Positions 2,758-5,578 of a stretch of 64,000 nt of DNA are shown here, piece by piece. Source of the DNA: Albugo candida (taxonomy: Eukaryota); the NCBI GenBank assembly GCA_040437565.1, contig JBDOQK010000012.1, positions 372,001 to 436,000 of the forward strand, written 5' to 3'. Below the pieces are notes generated by a model that was not told the origin of the DNA, searched no databases, and was given only the letters and a program-made list of their open reading frames with translations. Every line of letters starts with the position of its first letter. The first letter of the stretch is position 1. The position numbers were made by a program, and so were the translations under genes.

Positions 2758-5355
2758 ATGGATGGCTGCATGCGGCTGGGTATTATGCAGCTGTCGCGTT
2801 ATGCAATAAGGCGAAGGTCATCCCGCATTATTCGATCAAACTTGGACCTACATTTCTCGTCGCGATGTTTTTCCAGCATCGCTACGTCAATCCAACAACA
2901 TCGTGAAGCTATGTGGGAACTCGAATGCAAGCGCCAGCAAAAAGAGCGAAAAAATATCTCAGAGGCTATCAGCATCGAAGTACATACTAAACACGGTGTT
3001 CAAAGCGTCTGTGCGGTCGCCAATACCACCACACCACTTGACATTCTGAAGCAAAGTGATGAACGGCAACTTTTGATATGCGAGGACCCGGTTCTTGGGG
3101 CCCAGTATACATACAACAATAACGATGGAACGCTTCATAATACACTACATGATCTGAATCAGCCTTTGTCACATTCAGGCAAGTTGAATTTCTTGAAGTA
3201 TGTCCTGGTTCTTAGGCCATCCACATAATTTGACAGCTTCTCTCCAGTTTTGATAGTGCACAAGGAAAACAAATATTCTGGCATTCATCAGCTCATGTAA
3301 TGGGACAGGTATGATACAGAATTAGGCAGCGATGGACACCCATTGAACAACTATGTAGGCTTTGGAGTCTCGGTACCACGACCAAATTCGATTGTGTGAC
3401 GGTCCGGCCTTGATTGATGGAGGCTTCTTTTACGAAACTTTTTTCGACAATCAATATACAATATCCGAGTCAGATTTCAAAGAGCTGGAAGCCATATGCA
3501 AGCGAATTGTGAAGGAAAGACAACCTTTTGAACGAATGGAAGTGACTCGAGACTTTGCAAGAGAACTTTTTTCTTATTCAGACTTCAAATTGCAGGTGAG
3601 ACGGCTGGCCAAGTAGGACGTAGCACATGGAGACCAATATTTTATATGTAGATGCTACAGAACATCCCTTCCAACGAAGTAATATCGCTGTATCGTTGCG
3701 GTCGCTTAATCGATCTTTGTCGAGGTCCACACGTTCCCCACACAGGTAAACGAATTTCCACCAACAGTGGACTCAGTAGGCGAGCTGCAGAAATTGCGAA
3801 CAACCGTTCCTGTTGATTTTCTTGCAAGCCTTCTCACAGTCCGATAGAAATTGTCAATTACTGAACAACCCGTCAAATCTCACAAGGATTGATCATCTGG
3901 GCTACACTTTGACAAACATATTTTGAAAGCTTTGACGTCTACTAAGCCGACCATCTTTCTGTAGGTTTATTGAAGGCATTTCGGATTACTCGATGCGGGG
4001 CCTCACATTGGAAAAATCAAGCTCTCTTACAACGAATTTACGGGGTATCATTCCCAACAAAAGCTGAAATGAAATCCTGGCAACATTTTCAGGTCGAAGC
4101 TGCAAAACGAGATCACAGAATTATTGGTAAACAGCAACAACTTTTCTTTTTCCACCCTTATAGCCCAGGGTCGGCCTTTTTCCTTCCACATGGAGCACGA
4201 ATTTTCAGTAAACTCACAACACTTGTGCGTGAAGAGTACAAACTGTGCGGCTACGAAGAAGTGATAACGCCTCTTATTTTCAAAAAAGAGCTATGGAAGA
4301 CGTCAGGACACTGGGACAATTATAAAGAAAACATGTTTATGATAGCTCATGACCATGCTGTTGATCAGCATCCCGACGCTGCCTCCCTACCCAATAACAT
4401 GGTATCGAGCGAGCAGCTGGGATTGAAACCAATGAACTGTCCTGGACACTGCCTGATTTTCCGAGAAGGCTCCCGATACTCATATCGAGATCTTCCGGTG
4501 CGCTTTGCTGATTTTTCATCCTTACATCGTAATGAAGCAACTGGGGCTTTAACCGGCTTGACTCGGGTTAGACGATTTCATCAAGATGATGCGCACATTT
4601 TCTGTCGAGATGACCAAGTACAGCAGGAAATTGCAGACTGTCTGGCGTTCATCAAGCGGACATACGGTATTTTTGGTTTCAAATTTGAATTGTGCTTATC
4701 AACACGACCAGAAAAGTATTTGGGTGACCTAAGCTTGTGGGAAACAGCAGAGCGACAATTAGAGCAAGCGTTGAACGATTTCAAGCAGCCTTGGACAATC
4801 AAGGAAGGCGACGGTGCATTCTACGGGCCGAAAATCGATCTCATCGTCACTGATGCATTAAAGCGGCAACACCAATGCGGAACTATCCAATTAGATTTCC
4901 AGCTGCCTCGCAAATTCGATCTTGTGTATGATGGAGCTAATGGCCAGACGCACTCTCCAATTATAGTACATCGAGCCGTTCTAGGCTCCATTGAACGCAT
5001 GATGGCAATTCTGATCGAGCATACAGGAGGAAAGTGGCCGCTTTGGATAAATCCACGTCAAGTAGCTATCATCCCGGTTGCAGCGCCATTCGAAAACTAT
5101 GCCAATTCAGTTGCGACTCGACTGCGGAAGGAGTCGATGTTGGAATATGTGGATGTACTTGAATGCAGCAAAACCTTATCAAAAAGAGTACGAGAAGCAC
5201 AATTGGCCCAATATAGTTTTATACTGATTGTCGGGGATAAAGAACAGCAACATGAGGAAATCAATGTCCGCACTCGTGATAATGAACTTTGTGGTGCACA
5301 AAGCATTTTTACTTTCATACAAAACATAAATGCCCTTATTCACCAGAAAAAATAG
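2758..5355 (+). CDS. TARS2: Threonyl-tRNA synthetase, probably mitochondrial; 5 exons (introns 3198-3247, 3309-3358, 3596-3651, 3746-3964)
   Basis: Spliced product has [56 protein letters not shown] and HRAVLGS motifs; Arg/Ser-rich N-terminus resembles a presequence; the GT-AG introns restore frame. Start could be 2758, 2770 or 2785. Confidence 0.95.
3767..3921 (+). ncRNA. Intronic box H/ACA sno/scaRNA; 3' pocket predicted to target U2 snRNA
   Basis: Hairpin 1 closed by GGACT(3769-3773)/AGTCC(3838-3842); H box ATAGAA 3844-3849; hairpin 2 closed by TTGTCAA(3851-3857)/TTGACAA(3909-3915); ACA at 3916-3918 plus 3 nt; 14-nt pocket-to-box spacing in both hairpins; lies in the only long ThrRS intron. 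Confidence 0.8.
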
Positions 5356-5578
5356 ACTATATTTGTAAAACCGTGTTAGTATTCCGCTTCTCGCGTAATA
5401 AAGTTATCTCAAGTGCTGTCNNNNNNNNNNNNNNNNNNNNNNNNNNNNNNNNNNNNNNNNNNNNNNNNNNNNNNNNNNNNNNNNNNNNNNNNNNNNNNNN
5501 NNNNNNNNNNNNNNNNNNNNTCCGCTTCTCGCGTAATAAAGTTATCTCAAGTGCTGTCACATTGTTATCGCTGTCATC

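Follow-up and report, generated by a model that had tools for sequence, protein, structure and literature searches.

The closest described counterparts of the RNA considered here are guides of U2 snRNA: SCARNA15/ACA45 of vertebrates, known as scaRNA:PsiU2-38.40.42 in Drosophila and C50C3.14 in C. elegans, and snR81 of yeast, whose 5' pocket serves U2 Ψ42. The former is a two-hairpin box H/ACA RNA; the latter is an H/ACA guide for the U2 branch-site recognition region that has no CAB box, and it is not known to be intronic. CAB boxes are known as a metazoan feature. According to Deryusheva and Gall (PMC5733568), the 3' pocket of SCARNA15 from human, frog, and worm places U2 Ψ39 and additionally Ψ37, the latter via a configuration with three unpaired nucleotides; the pocket thus addresses U37/U39 in a non-canonical manner, with more than two unpaired nucleotides, and those authors also show that its spacing from ACA has to be exact. 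De Zoysa et al. (PMC6049503) showed in yeast that 8 bp of pairing with the target are required and suffice, that as many as four nucleotides may stay unpaired at the stem base, as was seen with the pocket of snR81, and that modification falls on the 5'-most uridine left unpaired. Two guides with rRNA targets offer further precedents (Jady et al., PMC8763049). The four-nucleotide pocket of Haloferax volcanii sR-h45 faces UAUG in 23S rRNA and yields two pseudouridines, and the upstream antisense stem of human SNORA53 pairs with one target residue bulged out; each of these RNAs modifies two uridines two positions apart.

Here, we analyzed a 64,000-nucleotide window of the Albugo candida genome and examined the fourth intron of a threonine-tRNA ligase (ThrRS) gene within it, which very probably encodes a genuine box H/ACA RNA. 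This reading is well supported by the architecture of the intron, its context in the host gene, the lack of polymorphism in the predicted RNA body, and the retention of intron 4 sequence in RNA contigs. That the same RNA also guides pseudouridylation of U2 at the equivalent of U37 is a less certain proposal, which we nonetheless favor from the complementarity of its 3' pocket. All features below lie on the plus strand and are numbered by position in the window.

The host gene (2911 to 5355) was delineated by five exon blocks (2911-3201, 3246-3308, 3359-3598, 3640-3747, and 3961-5352) that align collinearly to the annotated 689-amino-acid A. candida protein. Its large exon (3967-5352) matches the annotated A. 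candida threonine-tRNA ligase (P0001) at 98% identity, with the next relatives being other oomycetes at no more than 66% identity, and a protein atlas assigned the gene to the ThrRS family. A search of metagenomes with the large exon returned 80 loci, the best of them 53% identical, with no oomycete relative among them.

A contig of run X7 joins position 3743 to 3963, skipping 219 nucleotides, and a shift of 2 gives GT..AG ends and an intron spanning 3746 to 3964. An exon junction in the aligned A. candida protein spans the same interval; hence the intron boundaries given by the first-pass annotation hold by both a spliced RNA contig and the collinear protein alignment. Because X7 contigs are spliced, we treat this run as cDNA. 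The remaining three introns of the gene measure 50, 56, and 69 nucleotides by X7 joints, the last having GC..AG ends and being 51 nucleotides long in the annotated protein model. The earlier description of intron 4 as about four times longer than neighbors of 50 to 56 nucleotides therefore comes close: its exceptional length is confirmed, at 3- to 4-fold. A likely branch site, UACUAAG, can be read at 3942 to 3948, 17 nucleotides before the 3' splice site. We counted this host context in favor of an H/ACA RNA, as intron 4 is the lone long intron (219 versus 50 to 69 nucleotides) of a translation-related gene.

Within the intron, the predicted mature RNA comprises 155 nucleotides (3767 to 3921), its ends being predicted rather than mapped, and its minimum free energy (MFE) fold has the hairpin-hinge-hairpin-tail structure expected of RNAs of about 120 to 160 nucleotides, namely two hairpins, a 7-nucleotide hinge, and a 6-nucleotide tail. 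The 5' hairpin (3768-3843) is closed by a 6-bp lower stem, UGGACU/AGUCCG, formed by 3768-3773 with 3838-3843, and the best candidate for its upper-stem base is G3784-C3829; in the MFE fold, the pocket strands between these stems, CAGUAGGCGA (3774-3783) and CUUCUCAC (3830-3837), pair in part with one another. The H box AUAGAA (3844-3849) fits ANANNA and lies in a single-stranded hinge that is unpaired in both the MFE and centroid folds. In the 3' hairpin (3851-3915), the lower stem, UUGUCAA/UUGACAA, is perfect over 7 bp, 3851-3857 pairing with 3909-3915; the distal stem (3869-3901), made of CCC/GGG, GUCAA/UUGAU, and UCU/GGA with a 5-nucleotide bulge, is weak at -5.2 kcal/mol when folded alone. 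With the distal stem closed by CCC/GGG, the loop strands of the 3' pocket are 11 and 7 nucleotides long. They hold an upstream antisense element, GAACA(A) (3863-3868), and a downstream antisense element, CUACACU(U) (3902-3909), i.e., CUACACUU, which lies 14 nucleotides upstream of ACA. The ACA box (3916-3918) directly follows the 3' hairpin and is itself followed by UAU (3919-3921), placing it 3 nucleotides from the predicted 3' end.

The distance from the upper-stem base to the box, judged against a range taken from PMC8763049, is 14 nucleotides in both hairpins (3902-3915 to ACA and 3830-3843 to the H box). The fold and the coordinates thus bear out the architecture, the 14-nucleotide spacings, and the positions of the 3' pocket strands that had been given in the first-pass annotation. 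As also stated there, no UGAG was found in 3767-3921, where the sole NGAG is a CGAG at 3781 within a stem. Membership in the metazoan scaRNA class, which is defined by a CAB box (UGAG in terminal loops), was rejected on this ground.

It must be asked whether such an arrangement could be a chance look-alike, i.e., whether the intron merely happens to be long, perhaps after some insertion in the past, with a coincidental fold and U2 match and no stable RNA. Fold energy does nothing to dispel this explanation: the z-score is -0.6 for the RNA body, with 54 of 200 shuffles folding at least as well, and +0.5 for the intron, values by which we ruled out thermodynamic stability as evidence for an H/ACA RNA. 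The canonical fold with open pockets lies 8.5 kcal/mol above the MFE (-25.0 versus -33.5), mostly because the strands of the 5' pocket pair with each other.

We then scanned the window for the architecture itself with strict requirements, namely an ACA and, abutting it, a hairpin whose lower stem has 6 bp or more and whose distal stem lies 13 to 15 nucleotides from the box; ANANNA within 2 nucleotides; and a second abutting hairpin. On both strands of the 64 kb, the site at 3767-3921 was the one match. In 30 windows simulated by a first-order Markov model, the mean was 0.37 matches and at least one match occurred in 10, so a strict match somewhere in the window is unremarkable, as the look-alike explanation would have it. 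Scans with looser stems gave 3 and 5 real matches against 3.0 and 10.0 simulated, i.e., no excess. The expectation for a strict match on the sense strand of this particular 219-nucleotide intron is far lower, approximately 6.5e-4; since the scan criteria were fixed after the candidate had been seen, these chance figures are optimistic and the true value is somewhat larger.

The Rfam search to which the first-pass annotation had looked for corroboration on 3746-3964 provided none, and this too is what a look-alike would give. At gathering thresholds, no family matched anywhere in the window, H/ACA snoRNA and scaRNA families included, and at E ≤ 10 on 3600-4100 the only match was a spurious one to a lncRNA on the minus strand (E = 3.5).

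Independent evidence against coincidence came from strain variation. A 1201-nucleotide stretch containing the intron is spanned in full by DNA contigs from runs X13 and X6, which represent two other strains and together differ from the window at seven places. Two are in exons (3572 and 4216), and five are in intron 4, at 3751, 3765, 3956, and 3959 and as a one-base deletion in the T-run 3921-3924, which leaves ACA-UAU and the predicted RNA sequence unchanged. Few as these variants from two strains are, all five intronic ones fall in the 64 flanking nucleotides and none in the 155-nucleotide body. With uniform placement, the probability of this outcome is (64/219)^5 = 0.002, or 0.007 if the indel is left aside. 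The test is a fair one because the RNA boundaries had been predicted before the variant data were seen. The nearest variants bracket the predicted ends, one lying 2 nucleotides upstream of the 5' end and the T-run coming right after the 3' end; the variant-free zone ends at 3921-3924, which fits a 3' end 3 nucleotides after ACA.

RNA contigs were examined for traces of the intron. In run X7, an unspliced contig of 275 nucleotides (3718-3992, depth 16) keeps intron 4 across both splice sites, where the spliced joint has a depth of 34.9; the unspliced contig thus accounts for about one-third of the local depth, and the other three ThrRS introns are represented in this run by joints only. Contig depths are a poor measure of abundance, and contigs show neither the ends nor the levels of an RNA. 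Persistence of intron 4 sequence in RNA fits a stable intron-derived RNA, and a long structured intron that is spliced slowly would explain it just as well. One further contig, of 170 nucleotides and depth 3.4, comes from run X20, a run whose library type is not on record. It covers 3807-3937 between adapter-like ends, which we take to be Illumina adapter sequence, and is the sole piece of the 1201-nucleotide stretch in that run. Since the fragment starts within the 5' hairpin and ends 16 nucleotides past the predicted 3' end, its termini mismatch those predicted for the mature RNA; we accordingly do not regard it as that RNA and gave it no weight, and it may derive from a precursor or from DNA. 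The mismatched ends of this fragment, and the lack of any RNA of mature size among the contigs, count on the side of a look-alike. Such a look-alike would nevertheless need three independent coincidences, namely the architecture in this very intron, the placement of the variants, and the U2 complementarity presented below (P of approximately 0.002 to 0.01), and we consider it quite improbable.

The retained intron and its variant-free body also suit an alternative in which the sequence is conserved for some other role within the intron, for instance as a structure that regulates ThrRS splicing or intron retention, rather than as part of an H/ACA RNP. The share of the local depth held by the unspliced contig speaks for such a regulator, and a stop codon is met in frame when intron 4 is read through, so that a transcript retaining it would be unproductive or serve regulation. 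No sequence feature calls for such a role, however, and it is H/ACA guides in particular that have these boxes, these spacings, and a bipartite antisense match. The fold of 3767-3921, as we read it, displays no loop resembling the anticodon loop of tRNA-Thr, and the intron contains no C box, the feature on which a C/D snoRNA reading was likewise rejected. An intronic regulator in place of an H/ACA RNA therefore seems to us very improbable.

We searched for potential targets of both pockets among 16 sequences, amounting to 2,213 nonredundant nucleotides with each RNA type counted once: U1, U2, U3, U4, U5, U6, 5S, and SRP RNAs and a partial SSU rRNA. The rRNA pieces were obtained by primer and motif scans of viral contigs with Rfam checks; the 912-nucleotide SSU piece represents rRNA in the scan, LSU pieces of 103 nucleotides (5' end) and 381 nucleotides (3' end) having been left out. 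A search for eukaryotic rRNA in eukaryote-contaminated metagenome-assembled genomes (MAGs) yielded bacterial LSU or none.

The best site for the 3' pocket was U2 U37, with 8+5 bp, in the Rfam consensus and in U2 of eukaryotes other than Albugo. In this predicted pairing (human numbering), CUACACUU pairs with U2 A29-G36 and GAACA with U41-C45, leaving unpaired the target nucleotides U37-A38-U39-C40 (UAUC) and guide nucleotide A3868; for the eighth pair of the downstream duplex to form, the lower stem must open at its top pair. Against the U2 consensus, the pocket therefore offers at least 8 bp and an unpaired U at the stem base, as demanded by the antisense rule given in PMC6049503. The Rfam consensus carries GAUCAAGUGUAGUAUCUGUUCU in capitals, i.e., as near-invariant positions, and a U2-guiding role would presuppose the AAGUGUAGUAUCUGUUC segment in the U2 of Albugo. 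U2 genes recovered from eukaryote-contaminated MAG contigs carry the segment, but the motif itself was the bait by which they were found, and they therefore say nothing independent about how conserved it is.

Among 3,000 shuffled 3' pockets, 7 scored as high on any site in the set, and we estimate the chance of such a match at about 1% after allowing for some 5.5 kb of rRNA outside the scan. A chance origin of the apparent U2 complementarity is thus unlikely. The 5' pocket behaved differently: none of its matches in the set rose above background, its best score of 9 being reached by 466 of 3,000 shuffles of the 3' pocket letters, an indirect control, and it gave no match to U2 U41.

The earlier proposal for this pocket had paired the same elements with U2 and bulged C40 to place U37. 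The pairing exists in comparison with the Rfam consensus and does put U37 in place; the bulge turned out to be unnecessary. Both predicted variants, one with A3868 paired to U39 and C40 bulged and the other with four nucleotides unpaired, put U37 at the canonical place, and since a yeast guide can leave four nucleotides unpaired and then modifies the 5'-most U (PMC6049503), U37 would be favored without a bulged C40. U39 is plausible as a second site.

These data also bear on whether U2 is the physiological substrate at all, since a genuine intron-encoded H/ACA RNA might instead be a guide for rRNA or another RNA, or an orphan. The U2 pairing is non-canonical, with four target nucleotides unpaired and one guide A skipped, or a bulge in their stead, and the RNA has no CAB box; a canonical rRNA site may exist, given that the 912-nucleotide SSU piece is the only rRNA scanned. 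Moreover, according to PMC8522698, a large number of snoRNAs that could pair with a given target leave it unmodified in vivo. On the other hand, few shuffled pockets match the snRNA set as well, the matched region is guide modified in animals (PMC5733568), and the geometry with four unpaired nucleotides works in yeast (PMC6049503). Weighing these points, we regard a substrate other than U2 as unlikely. The missing CAB box weighs little here, CAB boxes being known as a metazoan feature.

A U2 guide within intron 4, the reading we retain, would operate as follows, where we infer the processing, the protein binding, the mature ends, and the modification itself. After splicing and debranching, exonucleases would trim the intron back to the bound complex of dyskerin (Cbf5), Nop10, Nhp2, and Gar1 and so release the RNA. 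Its 3' pocket would then pair with U2 snRNA through CUACACU(U) with A29/A30-G36 and GAACA with U41-C45, and the U37 equivalent would be modified, with U39 as a possible second site.

Placed beside the described guides, the Albugo RNA resembles SCARNA15 in its two-hairpin form and in the uridines that its 3' pocket is predicted to address. It differs in leaving four nucleotides unpaired, as opposed to two or three in SCARNA15, in having a 5' pocket without a U2 U41 match, in the absence of a CAB box, and in belonging to the oomycete lineage; sequence or covariance similarity between the two is not detectable, and homology is neither shown nor excluded. The absence of both an Rfam family and a CAB box makes it less likely to be a homologue of SCARNA15 or a scaRNA; the proposal that it functions like one is unaffected. 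With snR81 it shares the predicted target region and the lack of a CAB box, and its pairing would use the four-nucleotide tolerance shown for that guide; it differs in its predicted target uridine and shows no sequence similarity. The UAUC that its pocket would face corresponds to the U-A-U-N of sR-h45, and the variant with C40 bulged recalls SNORA53, with the difference that both of those RNAs act on rRNA and the Albugo RNA is predicted to act on U2. One may further speculate that guidance of U2 positions 37 and 39 by an H/ACA pocket is ancient and common to animals and stramenopiles, with a single UAUC pocket in Albugo making both Ψ37 and Ψ39 independently of a CAB-box/Cajal-body signal; this extension is tentative, and we hold it to be doubtful.

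In a full-text search, no paper on box H/ACA RNAs of oomycetes or stramenopiles came up. The predicted RNA of intron 4 is of an ordinary kind, although hardly any such RNA has been described from its group, and the mechanism of H/ACA RNPs as known is left unchanged by it. The H/ACA reading accounts for intron 4 being three to four times the length of its neighbors and flags an unannotated gene. If confirmed, the RNA would be a naturally occurring case of a pseudouridylation pocket with four nucleotides and a first reference point for guides of snRNA modification in the oomycete/stramenopile lineage, and it would indicate that the heavily modified branch-site recognition region of U2 is guide modified there, as it is in animals.

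On its plus strand, the 64-kb window has just two copies of the 8-mer GAACAACC, at 3798-3805 and 3863-3870; both, with a spacing of 65 nt, lie within the candidate box H/ACA RNA of intron 4 (3767-3921), one in each predicted hairpin. This repeat may be the trace of a hairpin duplication, or else a coincidence. When DNA contigs from two other strains were used as the source of variants, the 64 nt of intron 4 flanking the predicted RNA (3746-3766 and 3922-3964) were found to carry five, a very high density, compared with two in roughly 800 nt of ThrRS exon and none in the three short ThrRS introns. In addition, sequencing run X20, which bears a different organism code and has no recorded library type, holds a 131-nt piece of intron 4 (3807-3937) bounded by adapter-like ends, and this piece is the only sequence of the ThrRS gene in that run.

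Elsewhere in the host gene, a spliced RNA contig from run X7 skips 69 nt of the window at 3175-3248; shifting this gap by 3 nt yields a GC..AG intron at 3179-3247. Alignment of the annotated Albugo candida protein implies instead a 51-nt GT..AG intron at about 3197-3247. Because the RNA-based and protein-implied introns differ by 18 nt in frame, the discrepancy reflects either the use of an alternative 5' splice site or a donor that was annotated wrongly.

The window contains 13 scaffold gaps of exactly 100 N each, the first at 5421-5520. Since identical translated sequence flanks both sides of this first gap, the repeat suggests that the gap edge was duplicated in assembly. Contigs L148, L134, L109, and L177 are assigned to bacterial MAGs and harbor eukaryotic small-RNA genes: L148 (1-2453) packs five tRNAs, SRP RNA, U5, U2, U6, U4, and 5S within 2.4 kb, while L134 and others carry U2-U1-5S tandem arrays. 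They represent eukaryotic contamination of the MAG bins.
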